This document shows, one piece after another, positions 395 to 43,990 of a DNA stretch of 43,990 bases. Each line of letters opens with the position of its first letter. Within the stretch, counting starts at the first letter, position 1. The translations under genes and the position numbers were made by a program. The notes beneath the pieces are model-generated. The model was given only the letters and a program-made list of their open reading frames with translations. It did no database searches and was not told the origin of the DNA. This DNA is from Bacteroidales bacterium (lineage in GTDB: Bacteria; Bacteroidota; Bacteroidia; Bacteroidales; JAOZVK01), in contig JAOZVK010000001.1 in assembly GCA_029938185.1 (NCBI GenBank), positions 1 to 43,990 on the forward strand, given 5' to 3'.

Positions 395-2060
395 ACCCAG
401 CATCAATGACCGATTTTTCACTGGTGCATAATAGCCCGTAAAGTAGCATGGTCTGAGTATGTTCTGAAAATATTATTGGTGAATTTTTGAGTTTATCCAG
501 CTTAATAAATATCCCGCATGTAAGAATATAAGAGCTTACATACATACTCACGTTGGGTCAATTTTTATTTAAAATTAAATTATCATGGCGAAAAAGCAAA
601 AAAAAAAGTAAGCAAGCAAGATTTTATTTCTATGCCAGTTGTTAATCCTCATGCGGCAGGAATTGATGTTGGCGGGAAATCTCATTTTGTATGTGTATCA
701 CCGAAAAATGTTAAAGAATTTGGAGCATTTACAGACGATTTACATTCTATTGCTAGACACTTAAAAATGCACAAAATACGAAGCGTAGCTTTAGAATCTA
801 CGAGTCCGTATTGGAAGCAATTATTTGTGTTATTGCAAGATTATGATTTTGAAGTAACCTTAGTAAATGCCCGTCATTTAAAAAATGTCAAGGATTTGGA
901 AACGAGAGTTTTCAACCAACAGATGTTCTTGACAGTAAATGGATACAGTTGATGCATAGTATTGGTATTTTATCAAACAGTTTTCAGCCTGATAGTTTTA
1001 CAGAAGAATTGAGAACTTATAGTCGTCAGCGTCAATATTTAGTAAGAAATTCTTCTCGTTATATTGCAAAAATGAAAAAAAGTTTAATTTTGATGAATAT
1101 CAGATTAGACAATGTATTGCGAGACATTACTGGAAAATCCGGACTTGCAGTAATTGAAGCGATTATTTCGGGCGAGAGGAATGCCGATTCATTGTCTTTA
1201 CTTTTTGATTCCCGTGTAAAAGCCAATAAAACGGACATCAAAAAAGCACTCACAGGGAACTGGAAAAAAGAGTATATCTTTGAATTGGATCAAAGCTACG
1301 AGTTCTATAATTTTTATTGGAAAAAAATACAAGAATGTGATGCGGAACTTGACTTTTTATTAGAAAATTATATGACAGACCAAGAAAAAAGAACATCAAA
1401 GTCTCGATTAGAATATTCAAAAAAAAAAAAGAAAAATCACAAAAATGAAACAGATGTAGATGTATTGGCTTATGCTTATCAAATGTCAGGAGGAGTTGAT
1501 TTAAGCGAGATACCTGGAGTTGGAACAGGACTGATTTTAAGTTTAACTTCTGAAATTGGGTTTAATCTAAAAAGCAGTTTTCCAACCTATAAGCATTTTT
1601 GTTCATGGCTTGGTTTTGCTCCTAATAATAAAATTTCGGGAGGAAAGACATTGAGTAGTAAAACCCCAAAGATTCATGGAAATATTAAAAAGGCATTTAT
1701 GGATGCAGCTAATGCTGCCGGAAATTCACAAACACCTTTGGGTGATTTTTTCAGGGGGATTGCCTATCGAAAAGGAAGACCCGTTGCTATTATTGCAACT
1801 GCAAGAAAAATAGCAATTGCCGTATTTGTAATGTTAGACAAAAAAGTTCCTTATCAATATTCGCACAGCCAGAAAAAGCAAGAAAAATTAAGGAAAAATC
1901 AATTAAAAAATTTAAAGAAAAAATTATCGAAACTCAAACTATCTGAAGCAGAACTCGCTGAAATGACAGCAAATTCTACAAGCTAAAGAATTTCAAAAAT
2001 ATTAAGTCGCATTAATTGCCATATTTTTGGCTTAATGGAAAAATTATGTTTAATTGTGAA
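395..2060 (+). mobile_element. IS110-family insertion sequence (boundaries approximate; no terminal inverted repeats identified)
   Basis: Contains the split IS110-type transposase at 632-1986 plus ~240 nt of relatively GC-rich non-coding leader with a hairpin (ATGTAAG..CTTACAT near 518-545). The element ends were not determined. Confidence 0.4.
632..1986 (+). pseudogene. IS110-family (DEDD) transposase split by a frameshift into ORFs 632-952 and 949-1986
   Basis: The N-terminal ORF has MPVVNPHAAGIDVGGKSHFVCV and ALESTS.. motifs (DEDD_Tnp_IS110-like). The expected continuation ..TDVLDSKWIQLMHSIGILSNSF is open in the other frame from 853 onward. The C-terminal ORF has a Transposase_20-like GVGTGLILSLTSEIG segment. 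The frame switch must lie between ~853 and 950, possibly at the A5 run at 881-885. Confidence 0.8.
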
Positions 2061-35224: not shown

Positions 35225-36661
35225 ATGAAAAAAGAAAATTTAAAAAATCAGGAAGAAGACAAAACTTTGCTTGAAGGAAGTGAAAATTTGACAGATAAAA
35301 ATAATAATGAAATTGTAGAGGAAGAAAAAAAAACTTTGAAAGACAAGATTATTAATCAAAAAACAGCCTTGCTTGTTGCCGGTGGCGGATTGATTGCAGG
35401 GACTGGATTTGCAGCAGGAACAAAGCAAAATGATGAAATACTTATTGATACCGACAATGACAACATTGCTGATGCTGTTTTGATAGACGAAAACGAAGAT
35501 GGTATTTATAACACTGAAACCGAAATTGAGGAGATAGAGGAAGTTGAGGAAGTTGAAACCGAACCCGAAATTGAAACAAACAGCGAAAACTCAAATAGTC
35601 ATACTTTTAATACAGATACAGCACCTCACACAAGTGAAGGAACGGTTACTGATGATATGTCGTTTTCGGAAGCATTTGGGGCGGCAAGAACTGAGCTTGG
35701 TGCCGGTGGTGTATTTGAGTGGGACGGTCAAGCTTACAGCACTTTTTATGCTGAAGAAGTTGACGAAAACATGAATCCAACAGTTGATTATACAACTACA
35801 AACGACCCTGAATATATTAATAATAACAATTCTGAAAATGATAATGAAAATACCGAAATAAATAACAATACAGATAATGACACAGATATAGATGATAACA
35901 CAGAATTAGAAGATGATACATTTGATGTTGAAAATATAGATGAAATAATTGACAACAGTGTTGTAGATACAGGAACGGTGGAATACGATGGTGAAGTGTC
36001 GAATGATATTCCTGATGATGTTTCTAATACCGAACTTGATAATCACAATAACGAATTTTCCAGTTCAAATGATAATTTTGACGATGAAGGTGGTGATGAC
36101 ATAAATCTAACATTTAACTTTACAAACAATACTGAAAATAACAATACTGAAAATAATAATATTGTAAATAACAATACTGAAAATAATAATATTGTAAATA
36201 ATAATATTGAAAATAATGATATTGAAAATAATGATGTTATAATTATTGATAATGAAAACACTGAAATAAATAATAATACTGTTGAAATTGAAAACACAGA
36301 AATAAACAACAATACTACTGAAAACTCAGATAATAATACAAGTAATGAAACAGATACAGACGATATTGTGGACTTAGATAATGATGTAGAGTTAGATGGT
36401 GATTTAGAAATAGGTGATGGTGCAGAATTAGATGATGATGTAGAGTTAGATGGTGATTTAGGATTAGATGATGATGTAGTTGAAGTTGAAGACATTGATG
36501 AAATAATCGGCAACGGTGTTGTAGATACAGGAACAGTGGAATATGACGGTGAAGTATCAAATGATGTTACTGATGATGTGCCAGATACCGAACTTGATAA
36601 TCACAACGACGACCTTGCAGCTTTAGATGATGATTTTGATGATATGAACGACTGGGCATAA
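35225..36661 (+). CDS. extremely acidic D/E/N-rich repeat protein with one predicted TM segment
   Basis: TM-like TALLVAGGGLIAGTGFAAGT. Conserved-looking block DDMSFSEAFGAARTELGAGGVFEWDGQAYSTFYAEE. A ~47-aa unit is duplicated (..IDEII.N.VVDTGTVEYDGEVSND..D.ELDNHN..) and there are N/E/I microsatellite-like tracts. Confidence 0.7.
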   Translation: MKKENLKNQEEDKTLLEGSENLTDKNNNEIVEEEKKTLKDKIINQKTALLVAGGGLIAGTGFAAGTKQNDEILIDTDNDNIADAVLIDENEDGIYNTETEIEEIEEVEEVETEPEIETNSENSNSHTFNTDTAPHTSEGTVTDDMSFSEAFGAARTELGAGGVFEWDGQAYSTFYAEEVDENMNPTVDYTTTNDPEYINNNNSENDNENTEINNNTDNDTDIDDNTELEDDTFDVENIDEIIDNSVVDTGTVEYDGEVSNDIPDDVSNTELDNHNNEFSSSNDNFDDEGGDDINLTFNFTNNTENNNTENNNIVNNNTENNNIVNNNIENNDIENNDVIIIDNENTEINNNTVEIENTEINNNTTENSDNNTSNETDTDDIVDLDNDVELDGDLEIGDGAELDDDVELDGDLGLDDDVVEVEDIDEIIGNGVVDTGTVEYDGEVSNDVTDDVPDTELDNHNDDLAALDDDFDDMNDWA

Positions 36662-36665
36662 ATTA

Positions 36666-36698
36666 AACTTTGACAAAGTTTAAAACTTTGTCAAAGTT
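36666..36698. repeat. REP-like 33-nt palindrome
   Basis: AACTTTGACAAAGTT-TAA-AACTTTGTCAAAGTT. Confidence 0.9.
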
Positions 36699-36856
36699 GG
36701 AGTTACATAGTTTAACAATGTAAATTTATAACCGTTTGCAATATAATATTACATTATAATGGTCTCATAAATTATTATAGCATTCATAAAGTCTCGGTGT
36801 AGTTAATAAAAAAACTATGCAGTTAAAAAAAGAGCCACACCAAGACATTTCTTACA

Positions 36857-36888
36857 AGTTTGACAAAGTTCAAAACTTTGTCAAACTT
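36857..36888. repeat. REP-like palindrome (slightly degenerate)
   Basis: AGTTTGACAAAGTT-CAAA-ACTTTGTCAAACT. It supplies the spurious TTG start at 36860. Confidence 0.85.
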
Positions 36889-36910
36889 AAATAAACAAAA
36901 TCAAAAAATT

Positions 36911-37414
36911 ATGAAAGTAAAATGTTCAAAATGTGGTAGTATTTTGTTAATTGCCGAAAACAAATTACCAAAAAATAAAAAAAAGGCAATGGTAAAATGT
37001 AAAAAATGTAACCATTCAATTGTATTTACAATTCCTAATGCCGGTGAGCCAGAAGGTGAAAAAACTGAAATTGGCGATGCTAATGAACTAAAAATTCAAA
37101 ATGTAAAACTTATTGAAACAAAAACCGGTAAAGAATATATCTTAAAAATTGGAAAAAATATTATTGGAAGAAAAACAGATATTTCTATTGAGGGAGATAA
37201 ATACATTAGCCGTTTACATTGCCTTGTGGAAATGAAAAAACAAACTTGGGGCATCGAACTCACAATAAGCGATGATGGAACAGAAACAGGAAAGCCGAGC
37301 ACAAATGGAACTTTTTATAAAGATGAAAAAATATCAAAATTTGATAAAATTGTGCTAAAAAATGGTGACAAAATACGTGTAGGACGCACCGATTTAACTG
37401 TAAAATTTTATTAA
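36911..37414 (+). CDS. MJ0042-type zinc-ribbon plus FHA domain protein
   Basis: MKVKCSKCGSILL..VKCKKCNHSIVF zinc ribbon. FHA signature IGRKTDISIEGDKYISRLHC...STNGTFYKDEKI...LKNGDKIRVG. Confidence 0.85.
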   Translation: MKVKCSKCGSILLIAENKLPKNKKKAMVKCKKCNHSIVFTIPNAGEPEGEKTEIGDANELKIQNVKLIETKTGKEYILKIGKNIIGRKTDISIEGDKYISRLHCLVEMKKQTWGIELTISDDGTETGKPSTNGTFYKDEKISKFDKIVLKNGDKIRVGRTDLTVKFY

Positions 37415-37522
37415 GGTCTTCTATCTATTTATAGTTGCTTACGCATTAGTACAAAGACAATTTAATCAGGAAATTATGAATAAGTAAATGTCGAAAAAAT
37501 TTTGTAACAGTACTTAATTGAA
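37415..37522 (+). repeat. GGTCTTCGACC-family element, full-length
   Basis: GGTCTTCTATCTATTTATAGTTGCTTACGCATTAGTACAAAGAC...GTCGAAAAAATTTTGTAACAGTACTTAATTG starts on the base after the TAA stop at 37412-37414. Confidence 0.8.
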
Positions 37523-37533
37523 CAATTAAAATC

Positions 37534-37683
37534 GGGGCTAACAATAGTATCATCTTTACGGATAGCCTACTGTCGGCGTGGCTCAAAGCCACACCGACAG
37601 TTTTAGGACAAGACAGTAAGAGAACAAACAGGTGAAAAACACCTGCCGAGCGCAATGAAGTATTCAACTTTATGTGGGTAGCC
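37534..37683 (-). repeat. composite GC-rich repeat with two hairpins, ending ..AACTTTATGTGGGTAGCC
   Basis: Hairpin CTGTCGGCGTGGC-TCAAA-GCCACACCGACAG (37570-37600). Hairpin CAGGTG-AAAAA-CACCTG. The tail GAGCGCAATGAAGTATTCAACTTTATGTGGGTAGCC recurs at 42148-42205 and 43875-43931. Confidence 0.75.
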
Positions 37684-37733
37684 AAACAGGCTATGCTATT
37701 ATTAACATTGTGAAAACTTTTAAATAATTTAAA

Positions 37734-38495
37734 ATGAATATGAGAAAAATCTTATTAATACTTTTTTTTACTATTTTTTTGCAACAAACTAATGCACAAA
37801 AAAAATATGTTTTAATAGCAGGAGTTGCAGATTATAAAGATGATAGGCTGGATTTGCACTATTGCGACGACGATGCATACCGTTTTTATGCATATATGAA
37901 AAGTACAAAAGGTGGAAGTGTGCAGGACAATAATATTGCTATACTGGTAGACGAGGCTGCAACACGTAAAAATATTTTAATGACTATGCATAAAATTTTT
38001 TCTAAAGCAGGAAAAAATGATATGCTTATTTTTTATTTTTCGGGACATGGCGGAAAAGGCTATTTTTGCCCATACGAAACAAGTAAAAACCCTAAAAGTT
38101 TGTTGTTACACAACGATATAAAAAAAATATTCAAAAAACATCCTGCAAAAAGCAAAATTGTATTTGGTGATGCATGCCATTCGGGTAGTATTTTTGAAGG
38201 TACAAGCCACACTGTACCAAATGGAACCGCTGTAAAAACAAATGTTGTAATATTAATGTCATCAAAATATAGCGAAACCTCACAAGAAAATAAAAAACTC
38301 AGACAAGGTACTTTTTCTTATTATCTTTTGCGTGGATTACAAGGTAAAGCAGATAGAAATAAAGATAAAAACATAACTTTACAAGAACTTTTTCCATATA
38401 TTAAAGCAAATGTTCTTAACTTTACAAAAAATAGGCAAACACCATTTATTGAAGGTAAAGCACCTGCAAATATGATAATTGGTAGATTAAAATAA
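37734..38495 (+). CDS. caspase-like (peptidase C14) protease with N-terminal signal peptide
   Basis: Signal peptide MNMRKILLILFFTIFLQQTNAQ. Catalytic His motif FYFSGHGG and Cys motif GDACHSG in the canonical order. Confidence 0.85.
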   Translation: MNMRKILLILFFTIFLQQTNAQKKYVLIAGVADYKDDRLDLHYCDDDAYRFYAYMKSTKGGSVQDNNIAILVDEAATRKNILMTMHKIFSKAGKNDMLIFYFSGHGGKGYFCPYETSKNPKSLLLHNDIKKIFKKHPAKSKIVFGDACHSGSIFEGTSHTVPNGTAVKTNVVILMSSKYSETSQENKKLRQGTFSYYLLRGLQGKADRNKDKNITLQELFPYIKANVLNFTKNRQTPFIEGKAPANMIIGRLK

Positions 38496-38526
38496 CTTTG
38501 ACAAAGTTCCAAACTTTGTCAAAGTT
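38494..38526. repeat. REP-like 33-nt palindrome overlapping the caspase stop codon
   Basis: AACTTTGACAAAGTT-CCA-AACTTTGTCAAAGTT. Its first two bases are the AA of the TAA at 38493-38495. Confidence 0.9.
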
Positions 38527-38565
38527 AAAAGTTAAAAAGTTGAAAAATCAATAAAAATAAAAATT

Positions 38566-38724
38566 ATGTTAGCACTAAAAGGAATATACGAAAATGGAAC
38601 AATAAAATTTGATAAACCAATAAATATAAAAAAAGCTGTAAAAGTTATTGTTATATTTATTGATGAAGAAATACAACTAAACTATCAAACAGTTGATACC
38701 AATAAAGAACATATTGCAAAATAA
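38566..38724 (+). CDS. small DUF104/AF2212-like antitoxin-type protein (52 aa), not in the supplied ORF track
   Basis: MLALKGIYENGTIKFDKPINIKKAVKVIVIFIDEE resembles the IYENGV.KP...L.EG..V.I pattern of small antitoxin-like proteins. No toxin partner is adjacent. Confidence 0.45.
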   Translation: MLALKGIYENGTIKFDKPINIKKAVKVIVIFIDEEIQLNYQTVDTNKEHIAK

Positions 38725-38845
38725 CCGGAAACATTTTTATACTCCGATTGAAACAAAAAAGTAACATTTAATACAATATACAATTTGTAAGTTTGTACAA
38801 GCTTTTCAGATAAAACAAAAGTCAAAAATATTTAATTTAATAATT

Positions 38846-40144
38846 ATGATTAACGATAAAGTGTTAAACTACAAAATTACTGTCTCGATAGGTAAAGGCG
38901 GTATGGCAGAGGTATTTAAAGCCGAACATCAAACTTTTGAGGATAGAAAAGTGGCAATAAAAATTCTCGACCCTGTGCTTGCTCGTAAAGAAAATATTGC
39001 GACACGATTTGTGAACGAAGCCAAAATTATGGCTAAATTGGAGCATCAGAATATTGTAAAAGTGGTTGATTTTGAGAAACGCACAGATATGCTCGCCATA
39101 ATAATGGAACTTCTCGAAGGAAAAAGCCTGACAGGATATATAAAACAAAAAGGAAAACTGCAAAAACAAGAAGCCATAGAAATTTTCAAACAAGCTTTGA
39201 GTGCTTTTGAATTTGCCCACAAACACAATGTAGTTCACCGTGATGTAAAACCCTCAAATATTTTTATAGAGACCCAAAAAGGCAATAATGTTAAAATACT
39301 TGATTTTGGTATAGCAAAACTATTAGAAAGCAATGCAAACGACACAAACACAGGTGCACAAATGGGAACACCTGTTTATATGAGTCCCGAACAAGTAAGA
39401 GACAGCAAAAATATTGACAGCCGAAGTGATATATACTCTTTGGGCGTAGTATTGTATTATATGCTTGCCGGAAAACCACCTTATGACAGTACAAGTCTCT
39501 CGAATTTTGATATTTACACAAAAATTGTAAATGAGCCGGTACCTGAACTGAGCACTCACCCCGAAATTAACAAAATAATAAAAAAAGCAACCGCCAAAAA
39601 ACCTGCTGATAGATACCAAACATGCAATGAGTTTGAAAAAGCACTCGAAGTAAACTTTGACAAAGTTCCAAACTTTGTCAAAGTTGAAACAAACAACGAA
39701 GATGAAACCCTAATAGACAACGAACAAAAAAACTTTGACAAAGTTCCAAACTTTGTCAAAGTTGAACCAAACGAAGATGTAACCCTAATAGACGACCCCG
39801 AAACTGAACTTTGGGACAAAATAAAAAACAAAACAGATATACAACTGTTTAAAAACTATTTGCAAAAATACCCAAATGGAAGATATAAAGAACAGGCAAG
39901 TAAAATAATTGATGCTAAAAACTTTGAAAAACAAAAAAACTTTGACAAAGTTCCAAACTTTGTCAAAGTTGAAACAAACAACGAAGATGAAACCTTAATT
40001 GACGACCCCGAAACCGAACTTTGGGACAAAATAAAAAACAAAACAGACATACAACTATTTAAAAACTACTTGCAAAAATACACAAATGGAAGATATAAAA
40101 AACTGGCAAGTAAAATAATTGATGCTAAAAACTTTGAAAAATAA
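38846..40144 (+). CDS. Hanks-type Ser/Thr protein kinase followed by 70-aa tandem repeats, terminated by a TAA inside a repeat
   Basis: GKGGMAEVF, VAIKIL, HRDVKPSNIF, DFGIAK and GTPVYMSPE. From 39653 the repeat units begin. The stop at 40142-40144 is CAA in the paralogous repeat copies. Confidence 0.9.
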   Translation: MINDKVLNYKITVSIGKGGMAEVFKAEHQTFEDRKVAIKILDPVLARKENIATRFVNEAKIMAKLEHQNIVKVVDFEKRTDMLAIIMELLEGKSLTGYIKQKGKLQKQEAIEIFKQALSAFEFAHKHNVVHRDVKPSNIFIETQKGNNVKILDFGIAKLLESNANDTNTGAQMGTPVYMSPEQVRDSKNIDSRSDIYSLGVVLYYMLAGKPPYDSTSLSNFDIYTKIVNEPVPELSTHPEINKIIKKATAKKPADRYQTCNEFEKALEVNFDKVPNFVKVETNNEDETLIDNEQKNFDKVPNFVKVEPNEDVTLIDDPETELWDKIKNKTDIQLFKNYLQKYPNGRYKEQASKIIDAKNFEKQKNFDKVPNFVKVETNNEDETLIDDPETELWDKIKNKTDIQLFKNYLQKYTNGRYKKLASKIIDAKNFEK

Positions 40145-40526
40145 AAAAACTTTGACAAAGTTCCAAACTTTGTCAAAGTTGAGACAAGCAACAATGATGA
40201 AACCTTAATTGATGACCCCGAAACCGAACTTTGGGAACAAATTAAAAATAAAAACGATATACAACTATTTAAAAACTATTTACAAAAATACCCAAATGGA
40301 AGATATAAAGAACAGGCAAGTAAAATAATTGATGCTAAAAACTTTGAAAAACAAAAAAACTTTGACAAAGTTCCAAACTTTGTCAAAGTTGAGACAAGCA
40401 ACAATGATGAAACCTTAATTGATGACCCCGAAACCGAACTTTGGGAACAAATTAAAAATAAAAACGATATACAACTATTTAAAAACTACTTGCAAAAATA
40501 CCCAAATGGTAGATATAAAAAACTGG
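39653..40526 (+). repeat. coding tandem repeat, 210-bp unit (one partial, three full, one partial), each unit starting with the REP-like palindrome
   Basis: Palindromes at 39653, 39731, 39938, 40148 and 40358. Spacing is exactly 210 bp for the last three. The unit encodes NFDKVPNFVKVE..ETLIDDPETELW..IKNK.DIQLFKNYLQKYPNGRYK..A.KIIDAKNFEKQK. Confidence 0.9.
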
Positions 40527-41308
40527 CAATAATTGAACAACCATCTGAGAATATAAAAAACTATACAGAAACTGTAAAAAGTGTAAGTTTTGATATGAAA
40601 GCTGTAGAAGGCGGAACATTCCAAATGGGAAGTAACGAAAACAGTGATGAAAAACCAATACACAGCGTAACAGTCCACAGTTATAATATGGGTAAATACG
40701 AAGTAACACAAAAACTATGGAAAGCAGTAATGGACAACAACCCAAGCCATTTTAAAGGAGACAATAGACCTGTTGAACAAGTTAGCTGGGATGATATACA
40801 AAAGTTTCTTAAAAAGCTAAACAAAATGACTAGTAAAAACTATCGCTTGCCCACAGAAACAGAATGGGAATATGCAGCCAGTGGAGGTAGCAAAATCCAA
40901 TCAACAATAGGTCGCATTTTGGAATGGAGGGAACATGTAGCTAGGGGTAGCACACACCAACAAAAATGGGCAGGTACAAATAGAAAAAGCTTGCTTGGCT
41001 CGTATGCTTGGTATAGCGACAACAGTGGCAGTAAAACACACAATGTAGGAACAAAACGTCCAAATAAACTTGGAATATACGATATGAGCGGAAACGTATG
41101 GGAATGGTGTCAAGACCATTGGCACAGTAATTACAACGGTGCACCAACAAATGGAAGAGCATGGACAAGTGGTAGTAGTTCGCGCCGTGTTATTCGTGGC
41201 GGCAGTTGGTATTACAACGCCAGTGGTTGTCGTGTGGCTTATCGGTACAGCTACAGTCAGGGCGAGCGTGCCTACAACTTGGGCTTTCGCCTTGTGTTTG
41301 TCCCGTAG
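40490..41308 (+). CDS. FGE-sulfatase (SUMF1/formylglycine-generating-enzyme-like) domain; same frame as the kinase ORF and open back to 40145
   Basis: GGTFQMGS..., YNMGKYEVTQKLW, RLPTETEWEYAASGG, GIYDMSGNVWEWCQD, RVIRGGSW and NLGFRLV. Confidence 0.85.
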   Translation: MQKYPNGRYKKLAIIEQPSENIKNYTETVKSVSFDMKAVEGGTFQMGSNENSDEKPIHSVTVHSYNMGKYEVTQKLWKAVMDNNPSHFKGDNRPVEQVSWDDIQKFLKKLNKMTSKNYRLPTETEWEYAASGGSKIQSTIGRILEWREHVARGSTHQQKWAGTNRKSLLGSYAWYSDNSGSKTHNVGTKRPNKLGIYDMSGNVWEWCQDHWHSNYNGAPTNGRAWTSGSSSRRVIRGGSWYYNASGCRVAYRYSYSQGERAYNLGFRLVFVP

Positions 41309-41334
41309 TTTAATGAATGCTTTTCTGGAAGCTC

Positions 41335-41352
41335 AACTTTGACAAAGTTCAA
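41335..41352. repeat. half REP-like palindrome (left arm only) just upstream of the RAYT-like gene
   Basis: AACTTTGACAAAGTTCAA with no matching right arm. Confidence 0.7.
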
Positions 41353-41386
41353 ACCTAAAATTTAAACCAACAAACTAAATTATAAG

Positions 41387-42004
41387 ATGAAATATTATAC
41401 AGAACAATTAGAACCCGATAAATATTATCACATTTATAATCATGCAGTAGGAAAACTGAATTTATTTATAAACAATGATAATTATGATTTTTTTCTTAAA
41501 AAATATTCACAACATATTTCACCTGTTGCCGATACTTTTGCTTATTGTTTAATGCCAAATCATTTTCATTTTGCTGTGCGTATAAAATCTGGTTCGAGTA
41601 TTTCAAGTTTGACAAAGTTTCAAAACTTTGTCAAAGTTCGCCATCGCAGTATAGAATTTTTTGTCAGTAAACAATTTTCTAATTTATTCAGCTCATATTC
41701 TCAGTCGTTCAACAAACAACAAAACCGAAGGGGTAGCCTGTTTGAGCGTCCTTTTAAAAGATTACATATAATTGACGATAAATATTTTCGTTCAATAATA
41801 CATTATATTCATTATAACCCTGTTCATCACGGTTTTGTTGATGATTTACGCAATTGGAAATATTCATCTTTCGAGAGTTTTTTTTCAGATAAAGCAACTC
41901 AACTAAAACGTGAAGAAGTAATAAATTGGTTCGATAATAAAGAAAATTTTTATGAATTTCATAAAAAAGAAATAGATGAAAAATTGATATTAGAGCTTGA
42001 ATAA
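41387..42004 (+). CDS. Y1 HUH transposase, IS200-like / REP-associated tyrosine transposase (RAYT) type, carrying an in-frame palindrome insertion
   Basis: YHIYNHAVGKLNLF, HUH motif MPNHFHFAV, GSLFERPFKR and catalytic-Tyr region HYIHYNPVHHGFV. Confidence 0.75.
   Translation: MKYYTEQLEPDKYYHIYNHAVGKLNLFINNDNYDFFLKKYSQHISPVADTFAYCLMPNHFHFAVRIKSGSSISSLTKFQNFVKVRHRSIEFFVSKQFSNLFSSYSQSFNKQQNRRGSLFERPFKRLHIIDDKYFRSIIHYIHYNPVHHGFVDDLRNWKYSSFESFFSDKATQLKREEVINWFDNKENFYEFHKKEIDEKLILELE
41606..41638. repeat. REP-like palindrome inside the RAYT-like coding sequence
   Basis: AGTTTGACAAAGTT-TCAAA-ACTTTGTCAAAGTT, translated as SLTKFQNFVKV between the HUH motif and the Tyr motif. Confidence 0.9.
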
Positions 42005-42038
42005 ATTTTTATTTAACTTAATAATCAACCTAATAATC

Positions 42039-42071
42039 AACTTTGACAAAGTTTAAAACTTTGTCAAAGTT
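42039..42071. repeat. REP-like 33-nt palindrome downstream of the RAYT-like gene
   Basis: AACTTTGACAAAGTT-TAA-AACTTTGTCAAAGTT. Confidence 0.9.
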
Positions 42072-42147
42072 TAAACAGACAAACTAAATATTAACTGTAT
42101 TTTGCTAAATCTAAATCAAATATTGGCTCAGAGAATAAGCAGTCAGA

Positions 42148-42205
42148 GGCAGGTGAAAAAATACCTACAGAGCGCAGTGATGTATTCAACTTTATGTGGA
42201 TAGCC
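42148..42205 (+). repeat. GC-rich repeat tail module (CAGGTG hairpin plus ..AACTTTATGTGGATAGCC)
   Basis: GGCAGGTGAAAAAATACCTACAGAGCGCAGTGATGTATTCAACTTTATGTGGATAGCC matches 37628-37683 and 43875-43931. Confidence 0.7.
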
Positions 42206-42348
42206 TTTTCAATTAATAAGTAGATAGCTATATAAAAATGTCACTTTTATTATTAATATTATTCTGTTTATCAGGTGTAAGCAAACTTTTAACTTTTATC
42301 TTTTAACTGTTCACTTACTTAGGTACAACTTTAATATGCCATAAAAAA

Positions 42349-43320
42349 ATGAATAACGAAATACTAATATACAAAACCGAAGACGGTAAAATAAAAATAG
42401 AAACTCATTTTGAAAATGAAACTGTTTGGCTAAATATAGAGCAAATAGCAGAGTTATTTCAAAAATCACGCTCTACTATAAATGAGCATATTCTTAATAT
42501 TTATAAAGAAGGTGAGCTTGAACAAGAAGAAACAAAGAGAAAAATCGGAATTTCCGATTTTTCTACTAAACCCACAAATTTCTATAATCTTGATGTTGTA
42601 ATTTCTGTAGGTTACCGAGTTAAATCGCAAATAGGTGTTCATTTTAGAAAATGGGCTACTAGCATAATCAAAGAATACATGATAAAAGGCTTTGCCATGA
42701 ATGACGAATTATTAAAACAAGCTGGCGGAGGCAATTATTTTGATGAACTATTGGCTCGTATTAGAGATATTCGTTCTTCTGAAAAAGTTTTTTGGCGTAA
42801 AGTCTTGGATATATATGCTACAAGCATAGATTATGACCCCAAATCAGAACATTCGATATTGTTCTTTAAAACAGTTCAAAACAAAATGCACTGGGCATCG
42901 CATGGCGAAACTGCTGCCGAAACCATATATCGTCGTGTTAATTCAGAAGAAAAAAATTTAGGATTGACAAATTTTAAAAAAGAAATTCCAACACAAAAAG
43001 AAACTGAAATAGCTAAGAATTACTTAGTAGAAAATGAATTGAATATGCTTAACCGAATGGTAACGGCCTATCTTGAAGTTGCAGAAATTCAAGCACTAAA
43101 TCAAATACCAATGTACATGGGTGATTGGATTAAACAATTGGACTCTTTTCTAACAATGACAGGAAAAGAGGTACTGCAACATTCCGGTACAGTAAGTCAT
43201 AAACAAGCAATTGAAAAAGCTCATACAGAATATAATAGGTACAAGGAGAAGGTAAAAAACAGAATATCTCAAGTTGAAAAGGATTTTATGAAACAAATTG
43301 AAAACAAAACGAAAAGATAA
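42349..43320 (+). CDS. RhuM-family (virulence protein RhuM-like) protein
   Basis: ETVWLNIEQIAELFQKSRSTINEHILNIY, YNLDVVISVGYRVKS and FRKWATSIIKEYMIKGF, typical of the RhuM family. Confidence 0.75.
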   Translation: MNNEILIYKTEDGKIKIETHFENETVWLNIEQIAELFQKSRSTINEHILNIYKEGELEQEETKRKIGISDFSTKPTNFYNLDVVISVGYRVKSQIGVHFRKWATSIIKEYMIKGFAMNDELLKQAGGGNYFDELLARIRDIRSSEKVFWRKVLDIYATSIDYDPKSEHSILFFKTVQNKMHWASHGETAAETIYRRVNSEEKNLGLTNFKKEIPTQKETEIAKNYLVENELNMLNRMVTAYLEVAEIQALNQIPMYMGDWIKQLDSFLTMTGKEVLQHSGTVSHKQAIEKAHTEYNRYKEKVKNRISQVEKDFMKQIENKTKR

Positions 43321-43587
43321 AAAAAATAAACGAATTGACTGCTTGTTCTCTTGCACAGAGCAACGCCTTAAACAAGTAATGTTGTTGCATATTGATAAAG
43401 ATAATTTTTTCAATAAAATGATAGATTATCAAATAAGCGAATTAAAACTTGGCTTATACAATATTGAAACAATTTGAGGAAAATCAAAAAAAATGTTGTG
43501 GTTTGAAACATGTCACATATTCTTACTTATATTCGTTGCATGTTGTTATATTTTAAAAATTGTAATGAAAATCAATAACATAACTGC

Positions 43588-43631
43588 CTACTGTCGGCGT
43601 GGCTTCAATGCCACACCGACAGTTTTAAACA
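43588..43631 (+). repeat. GC-rich hairpin module (second copy)
   Basis: CTGTCGGCGTGGC-TTCAAT-GCCACACCGACAG, with the same stem (including one C/A mismatch) as 37570-37600. Confidence 0.75.
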
Positions 43632-43701
43632 GGCAAAATGTAACAAACCAGTACAACTTTTTGAAATTTCCGAAATACTAAAAAAATGAAGCTACAAATA
43701 A

Positions 43702-43869
43702 AACAACCTTCAAATATCAGCTCTTTTTGAACGAGATAAGTCTGTTATTTCAAGGCATATAAATAATGTTTTTAAAGAACAGGAATTAGAAGGAAATTCA
43801 ACTGTTGCAAAATATGCAACAGTTCAAAAAGAGGGCGAAAAAAAAATTATCAGAAATATTGATTTTTGG
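43702..43869 (+). pseudogene. N-terminal fragment of a second RhuM-like gene, with no start codon, truncated by a repeat
   Basis: The open frame NNLQISALFERDKSVISRHINNVFKEQELEGNSTVAKYATVQKEGEKKIIRNIDFW parallels residues ~28-85 of the gene at 42349. Homology stops where the repeat at 43875 begins. Confidence 0.45.
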
Positions 43870-43874
43870 TCAGC

Positions 43875-43931
43875 GGCAGGTGAATACACCTGCCGAGCGC
43901 AGTAAACTATCCAACTTTACGTGGGTAGCCC
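43875..43931 (+). repeat. GC-rich repeat tail module (third copy)
   Basis: GGCAGGTGAATACACCTGCCGAGCGCAGTAAACTATCCAACTTTACGTGGGTAGCCC. Confidence 0.7.
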
Positions 43932-43990
43932 ACAAGCCATCGCCGTCAGGCTAACACATAACTATCTATTATTTAACATATAACATTGTT

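Follow-up and report, generated by a model that had tools for sequence, protein, structure and literature searches.

A single in-frame stop codon, TAA at 40142-40144, interrupts what would otherwise be one continuous gene for a Hanks-type Ser/Thr kinase joined through linker repeats to an FGE-fold domain, and we consider it probable that this stop arose by a recent, genuine CAA-to-TAA nonsense mutation, leaving a 432-aa soluble kinase and an FGE remnant that is most likely untranslated. The window analysed here, to which all coordinates refer unless another contig is named, is a stretch of 43,990 nt that makes up the entire contig C665 in a 5.7-Mb draft genome (697 contigs, 27.7% GC), and the parts of the gene lie on its plus strand. 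The stop is present in the sequence and is reproduced in a second assembly, the frame and the domain downstream of it are intact, and the homologues are uninterrupted. It resembles the commonplace kind of recent truncation or pseudogene and calls for no new mechanism, and the window gene would be one more disrupted member of a large kinase-FGE/CLec paralogue family in an uncultured, AT-rich member of the Bacteroidota.

The upstream ORF (38846-40144, 432 aa, ATG start), a gene call on record, encodes the kinase and linker repeats and ends with the TAA where repeat unit 2 meets unit 3, while the in-frame continuation (40145-41308, 387 codons) carries repeat units 3 and 4 and then the FGE-fold domain, without any stop before the terminal TAG at 41306-41308. 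The first-pass annotation had placed the ORFs at 38846-40144 and 40490-41308 in one frame with this TAA as the single interruption, and our reading agrees. Counting stops over 38846-41308 gave two in frame 1 (the premature TAA and the terminal TAG), 53 in frame 2 and 99 in frame 3, and none of 20,000 shuffles of the 150 codons 3' of the stop (40145-40594) yielded an open frame; the openness of the downstream frame is far beyond chance. With Gln at the TAA, the product (P0001) is 820 aa long and has the architecture Pkinase plus FGE-sulfatase. The positions homologous to 40142 in the neighbouring units, 39932 and 40352, both carry C (codons CAA at 39932-39934 and 40352-40354), as had been noted earlier, and when the two homologous junctions of a paralogue on contig C53 are counted with those of the window, the codon is CAA at five of six and TAA solely at 40142. 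Comparison of the 2-to-3 junction with the 3-to-4 junction revealed T at 40142 against C at 40352 as the sole difference over 174 nt. The starts available in frame 3' of the stop are a TTG at 40490 (116 codons on), from which the 272-aa ORF on record begins, and an ATG at 40595 (151 codons on). Both split products, of 432 and 272 aa, are on record in a collection of ~15 billion proteins that has no entry for the intact 820-aa product; for annotation purposes, these two gene calls are two pieces of one gene.

The proposal that one CAA-to-TAA change split an 820-aa kinase-repeat-FGE fusion is further supported by intact homologues that share this architecture. Fusions of Pkinase and FGE-sulfatase are common among the homologues, and several matches (e.g. 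P0019, P0101 and P0104) bear the NCBI name 'bifunctional serine/threonine-protein kinase/formylglycine-generating enzyme family protein', such that the kinase-FGE architecture is already known. The closest database protein, P0004 (653 aa, ENA contig L011), is 77% identical in the kinase, is an uninterrupted fusion and holds one copy of the ..DDPETELWDKIKNKTDIQ.F.KYLQKY.NGKYK.. unit. Because the architecture is common and P0004 is a continuous fusion, a fused ancestor is well supported. The window gene resembles the bifunctional family in its N-terminal Hanks kinase with all catalytic motifs, its C-terminal FGE-sulfatase and its low-complexity or helical-repeat linker with a ..YLQKYPNGKYK.. motif; it differs in being broken by the TAA, which makes it a disrupted member whose two domains no longer share one uninterrupted frame, and in holding five in-frame copies of a 33-nt genomic palindrome. 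Relative to P0004, with its one linker repeat unit, the window gene has 3.9.

The kinase domain (PF00069, residues 9-259, 38870-39622, E 4.7e-58) retains all of its motifs, namely VAIK (residue 36), HRD (131), DFG (153) and SPE (180). Its dN/dS is 0.10 against the paralogue on C546 and 0.17 against the paralogue on C53, values that reflect purifying selection on the domain, and because of this history the 432-aa product may have kept its kinase activity although it is without its sensor. The FGE-sulfatase domain (PF03781, 40595-41296, E 3.1e-51) is matched over profile positions 5-254 of 255, and here the earlier label needs to be divided: the full-length FGE-sulfatase fold stands, whereas identity as a true FGE is doubtful. 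The best solved relative of this C-terminal domain is Treponema denticola TvpA (2y3c, E 2e-45), followed by PvdO (4e-23), and true FGEs match it at ~1e-16 only. The 'FGE' domain is thus probably a TvpA-like ligand-binding module.

Two further features set the window protein apart from its relatives. It has no hydrophobic segment (highest 19-residue Kyte-Doolittle mean 0.86), whereas its closest relatives P0004, P0016, P0020, P0042, P0032 and P0062 (the last on C546) have a transmembrane helix that separates the kinase from the C-terminal domain, with scores of 2.5-3.2; helix-free fusions are also known (P0060, P0063 and P0083), so that the helix is typical of the closest relatives and not universal. 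At the site of the relatives' helix (KK.LL.PII...FIWQP) the window reads KKLAII (40517-40534), and the alignment of KKLAII/EQPSENIKNYTETV with KK.LL.PII[helix]WQP...YTETV of P0020 suggests that the core of the helix was deleted in the window gene. The second feature is a 60-nt insertion in the FGE domain (40892-40951; 20 aa, KIQSTIGRILEWREHVARGS) relative to all aligned homologues, with 7-nt direct repeats GGTAGCA at 40886 and 40946. We rejected this insertion as a mobile repeat, as it has no second copy in the genome.

The linker in which the stop lies is a tandem array. A 78-nt repeat of 1.9 copies (39652-39797) holds the first two hairpin-encoded NFDKVPNFVKV segments, and a 210-nt (70-aa) in-frame repeat identified with Tandem Repeats Finder extends over 3.9 copies with 93% match (39723-40529). 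Each 210-nt unit starts with the hairpin-encoded peptide NFDKVPNFVKV, and an acidic linker and a helical motif that is BamD/YbgF-like (..LFKNYLQKYPNGRYK..) follow. Identity between units is 87-93%, with variants distributed among them in a mosaic pattern; units 3 and 4 agree completely over 136 nt past the junction, units 1 and 3 have tails that match exactly over 110 nt, and 143 nt (39704-39846) recur identically in the C53 paralogue, which is laid out as kinase, three hairpin peptides, one repeat unit and then a membrane region. The pairing of kinase head with repeat tail at 39704-39846, in the window as against C53, rests on read-pair evidence, and two public assemblies break there. A protein search with the repeat region alone in a 5.8-billion-cluster set found no protein with the array, the best match being the one unit in P0004.

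The palindrome within each unit is a perfect hairpin of 33 nt with a 15-bp stem and a CCA loop, and the copy at 40148-40180 starts 4 nt past the stop. Identical in-frame copies start at 39653, 39731, 39938 and 40358, and the genome holds 35 copies in all, 26 of them outside long frames; elsewhere in the window they occur at 36666-36698, 38494-38526, 42039-42071 and other positions. A scan of GTDB species genomes for the exact 33-nt hairpin (AACTTTGACAAAGTT-NNN-AACTTTGTCAAAGTT) returned 90 stretches (loci L012-L101) in hosts that include Flavobacterium, Aequorivita, Moheibacter, Capnocytophaga, Spirosoma, Runella, Pedobacter, Saprospiraceae, Draconibacterium and other Bacteroidota. Letter-for-letter conservation of a 30-base palindrome over several classes is unusual for a REP-like element, and an Rfam search of the hairpin gave sub-threshold chance matches only and no family.

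Bringing these comparisons together, we propose the following history. The ancestor would have been a P0004-like protein of kinase, linker unit, transmembrane helix and FGE-fold domain; in this lineage the genomic palindrome would have entered the linker, the linker unit would have multiplied to about four copies that exchanged sequence with one another, and the transmembrane helix would have been lost. The latest step would then be a C-to-T transition converting a Gln codon, CAA, to TAA at a 210-nt unit boundary, such that translation would stop after the kinase and two repeat units to give the 432-aa soluble kinase, and the remaining 387 codons, with two repeat units and the TvpA-like domain, would most likely go untranslated as a young, undecayed remnant. 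C-to-T is the expected mutational direction in an AT-rich (27.7% GC) genome. The change appears recent and decay minimal because PF03781 is still matched at 5-254 of 255 and no further stop has arisen in the 150 codons that follow the TAA. From this we infer a silent downstream part and a recent change that is either neutral or a loss of function, within a large and fast-turning-over paralogue family.

Gene death by nonsense mutation is ordinary in this genome: its paralogue families are large, with no fewer than 17 matches to kinase domains and 18 to FGE domains, and at least five other genes are broken by one in-frame stop that falls either inside a domain or between domains that belong to a single architecture. 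These single-stop genes encode a kinase on C607, an MCP on C345, a C10 protease with I69 propeptide on C390, a WG-repeat protein on C202 and an AAA_31 ATPase on C690, the last interrupted by TGA. The window gene is like ordinary bacterial nonsense pseudogenes, with at least five comparable cases in the same genome, in that one transition makes the stop and the downstream frame is intact, and it differs from them in that the stop is flanked, within a tandem repeat, by sister units that are possible repair templates. The C607 gene (minus strand, stop at oriented position 919) joins a kinase to an AAA_16 STAND-like ATPase, and its TAA falls between HRD and DFG (..HRDINCNNI*IDKQDNTNIIDFG..). Of the explanations that the first-pass annotation had offered, recent pseudogenisation fits best.

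Other assemblies of the locus were recovered by exact-protein look-up of neighbouring genes, a route by which a doubtful stop codon in a draft can be compared with other public assemblies without reads. One contig (L182; GCA_029935775.1, JAPOGV010009997.1, 3,667 nt) corresponds to window 39792-43458 at 99.95% identity and likewise reads TAA at the site, preceded by 350 nt of units 1-2; it differs from the window at two positions only, with C for T at 40213 and 40423. From the same assembly, a contig corresponding to window 36398-39758 (L185) matches with 0 mismatches. A contig from a further assembly (L183; GCA_029940435.1, 3,863 nt) corresponds to window 40128-43990 and reads C at 40142 and at 40213. 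The differences between assemblies are confined to 40213 and 40423 (T,T in the window; C,C in L182; C,T in L183) and to 40142, where two assemblies have T and one has C, the latter at a non-diagnostic contig end. Positions 40213 and 40423 are homologous synonymous sites in units 3 and 4, and the differences there reflect either ongoing gene conversion in the array or assembler noise among repeat copies.

The contig ends bear on how the C in L183 is to be read. Its CAA lies at base 15 of the contig, within a 55-mer common to all CAA junctions, and the contig's first 55 nt are precisely the final 55-mer of the 110-nt segment common to the CAA junctions; similarly, 39758 is the last position of both L185 and L186 and 39792 the first of L182, each 54 nt inside an end of the 143-nt stretch shared with C53. 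Such breakpoints are the signature of k=55 de Bruijn assembly. Since L183 starts with a shared 55-mer, which is an expected k=55 start point, its first 55 nt are silent on the tail that precedes unit 3, and we rejected its CAA as proof of an intact allele because this contig end is non-diagnostic. A CAA allele at 40142 is nonetheless possible.

Searches more widely afield brought up no further copy of the site. Among 40 genomes of the same order no orthologue was found, the best match being 46% identical and all matches belonging to other families. An exact-pattern scan of JGI metagenome contigs for the junction with either base gave no match, a protein-based scan of metagenome contigs gave nothing above 52% identity, and the 5.8-billion-cluster protein set held no orthologue or near-identical locus.

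The first alternative to a simple nonsense mutation is that the stop is a reversible on/off state, set by gene conversion or unequal crossing-over of the 210-nt units, in a population with both kinase-only and kinase-FGE forms. Repeat units that are 87-93% identical with exact stretches of 110-136 nt would suit RecA-dependent exchange, and the mosaic unit variants are consistent with such exchange in the past. The three assemblies differ inside the array only (40142, 40213 and 40423) while the 3.4 kb upstream (36398-39758) is identical, and L183 reads CAA ahead of a unit-3-type head. Against this, the C in L183 stands 15 nt from a contig end, in the 55-mer of all CAA junctions where a k=55 start point is expected, the off form is a point mutation and not a change in repeat number, and there is no sign that switching is frequent or selected. 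The on/off variant that the first-pass annotation had raised keeps a single hint, the CAA of L183, whose position at the extreme end of a contig makes it non-diagnostic, and we consider it unlikely. The site may still be polymorphic and the stop could be reversible by repeat recombination, because the sister units carry CAA and recombination with them could remove it; if so, the locus would offer a small example of repeat-templated switching in a putative conflict/signalling kinase. A stronger version, in which TAA and CAA form a standing reversible polymorphism that toggles, via unit gene conversion, a cytosolic conflict-system kinase between forms without and with a lectin-like (formerly DGR-diversified) sensor, strikes us as more doubtful again, although if true it would be a repeat-templated on/off switch built on a nonsense codon instead of a frameshift.

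It is also conceivable that assembly or sequencing produced the T as an artefact, or that it belongs to a minor strain and entered the consensus of a hard repeat, the real gene being intact. The draft is fragmented into 697 contigs, the exact repeats of the array exceed common k-mer sizes, the assemblies disagree at the repeat-copy variants 40213 and 40423, and L183 has C. The number and order of units are only weakly secured by short reads, because of the exact array repeats of 136 and 110 nt and the 143 nt shared with C53. Yet no other copy in the genome has T at the homologous junction, and for that reason a mix-up of repeat copies, or mis-threading among them, cannot create the T at 40142; by our own reasoning, any consistent path through the variants should keep the T junction in frame, with the kinase before it and the FGE domain after it. 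A random consensus error or assembler artefact at this position is likewise unlikely, because a second assembly with another contig structure and other repeat variants, possibly built from overlapping reads, has the same TAA with unit-2 context upstream. The absence of the 820-aa product from the ~15 billion proteins that include both split products also speaks against an artefact. An error as the cause of the stop, which had been among the possibilities raised at the outset, is in our assessment quite improbable in the face of an assembly (L182) that shares the TAA and differs at two other repeat positions.

Natural fission of the gene into two separate functional proteins, the second made from TTG 40490 or ATG 40595, seems to us very unlikely, even though the downstream domain is undamaged, the Pfam domain starts right at ATG 40595, stand-alone FGE-domain proteins of ~260-290 aa occur in relatives, and one distant relative (G036) has its kinase and FGE parts in separate, overlapping frames. 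The 116-151 codons between the stop and these starts are repeat sequence near-identical to translated units, the closest homologue P0004 is a continuous fusion, and an internally started FGE protein would be without the signal peptide or membrane anchor of the genome's stand-alone FGE protein (C162). Promoter scans between the stop and TTG 40490/ATG 40595 found no convincing Bacteroidota- or sigma-70-type site 3' of the stop, the sigma-70 scan being ill-suited to Bacteroidota, and an internal promoter or start was rejected as unsupported on this basis.

Least credible of all is programmed read-through or recoding of the TAA, perhaps stimulated by the 15-bp hairpin 4 nt on, with an 820-aa protein as a minor product: a stable hairpin does lie directly 3' of the stop, with A as the next base, and the downstream frame is fully open, but the hairpin also follows CAA in every other unit and so did not evolve for the stop, no UUA anticodon occurs among the 32 tRNAs found, TAA ends 1,443 of 1,983 (73%) frames of at least 300 codons, tight TAA..ATG gene junctions are common, the TAA in the C607 kinase would need a hydrophobic residue and not Gln, and a conserved orthologous stop is not known, the 40 same-order genomes having given no orthologue. 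Codon reassignment was rejected on similar grounds (no suppressor tRNA, TAA as the main stop, and different residues needed at the two kinase TAAs), and the earlier suggestion of a read-through site found no support.

Returning to the gene that a recent nonsense mutation would have truncated, its FGE domain ends in an A-poor, G+C-rich tail (41160-41308; 149 nt, GC 54%, A 16%) that encodes ..RGGSWYYNASGCRVAYRYSYSQGERAYNLGFRL.., compared with 38% GC and 42% A in the remainder of the domain and 28% GC in the genome. By composition and position, this tail looks like a fossil or orphan DGR variable region. TvpA (PDB 2y3c) is a non-enzymatic, FGE-type C-type-lectin-fold DGR target, and the C-terminal domain of the window gene belongs to the TvpA/CLec type on which DGRs act; besides being the best solved match, TvpA shares with the window a ..RGGSW...C....R......LGFRL tail that in TvpA is the variable region, and the window tail is A-poor and G+C-rich as a variable region is. 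The difference from TvpA is that the assembly holds no template repeat for the window tail, and that the DGR on C162 targets other genes, on C162 and C97.

This C162 DGR is complete, with an FGE-fold target gene, an accessory ORF, a reverse transcriptase (797-1807, minus strand) and a 132-nt template repeat (template repeat ~638-790; variable region ~2409-2560), and 17 of 17 mismatches between its template repeat and variable region fall at template adenines. A second, remote variable region of the same DGR is located on C97. The only reverse transcriptase of the genome is the one on C162, and the window tail has no cognate template repeat there or elsewhere in the assembly; an adenine-tolerant search of the whole assembly for a template repeat of the window tail returned the region itself only. 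We rejected the tail as a target of the genome's DGR, as its mismatches to the C162 template repeat involve all four bases.

The neighbourhood of the gene includes a zinc-ribbon-FHA protein (36860-37414), a caspase-like protease (37734-38495), a gene resembling REP-associated tyrosine transposases, and RhuM. Kinase-, caspase- and STAND-linked CLec/FGE 'sensor' proteins have been described in putative conflict systems of multicellular bacteria (PMC10907252; Kaur, Burroughs, Iyer and Aravind, PMC7159879), and the window gene resembles them in having an FGE-type CLec fused to a kinase, beside a caspase-like protease and a zinc-ribbon-FHA protein and with a DGR in the genome. It differs from them in that this copy is truncated and no DGR lies at the locus. 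By analogy, the setting matches the kinase/caspase/FHA plus CLec class of putative conflict systems of PMC10907252. The transposase-like gene is an ORF of 205 aa (41387-42004) that scores 63 bits against the NCBIfam model for REP-associated tyrosine transposase, below its cutoff of 80 bits, and this ORF itself contains an in-frame copy of the hairpin at 41605-41638.
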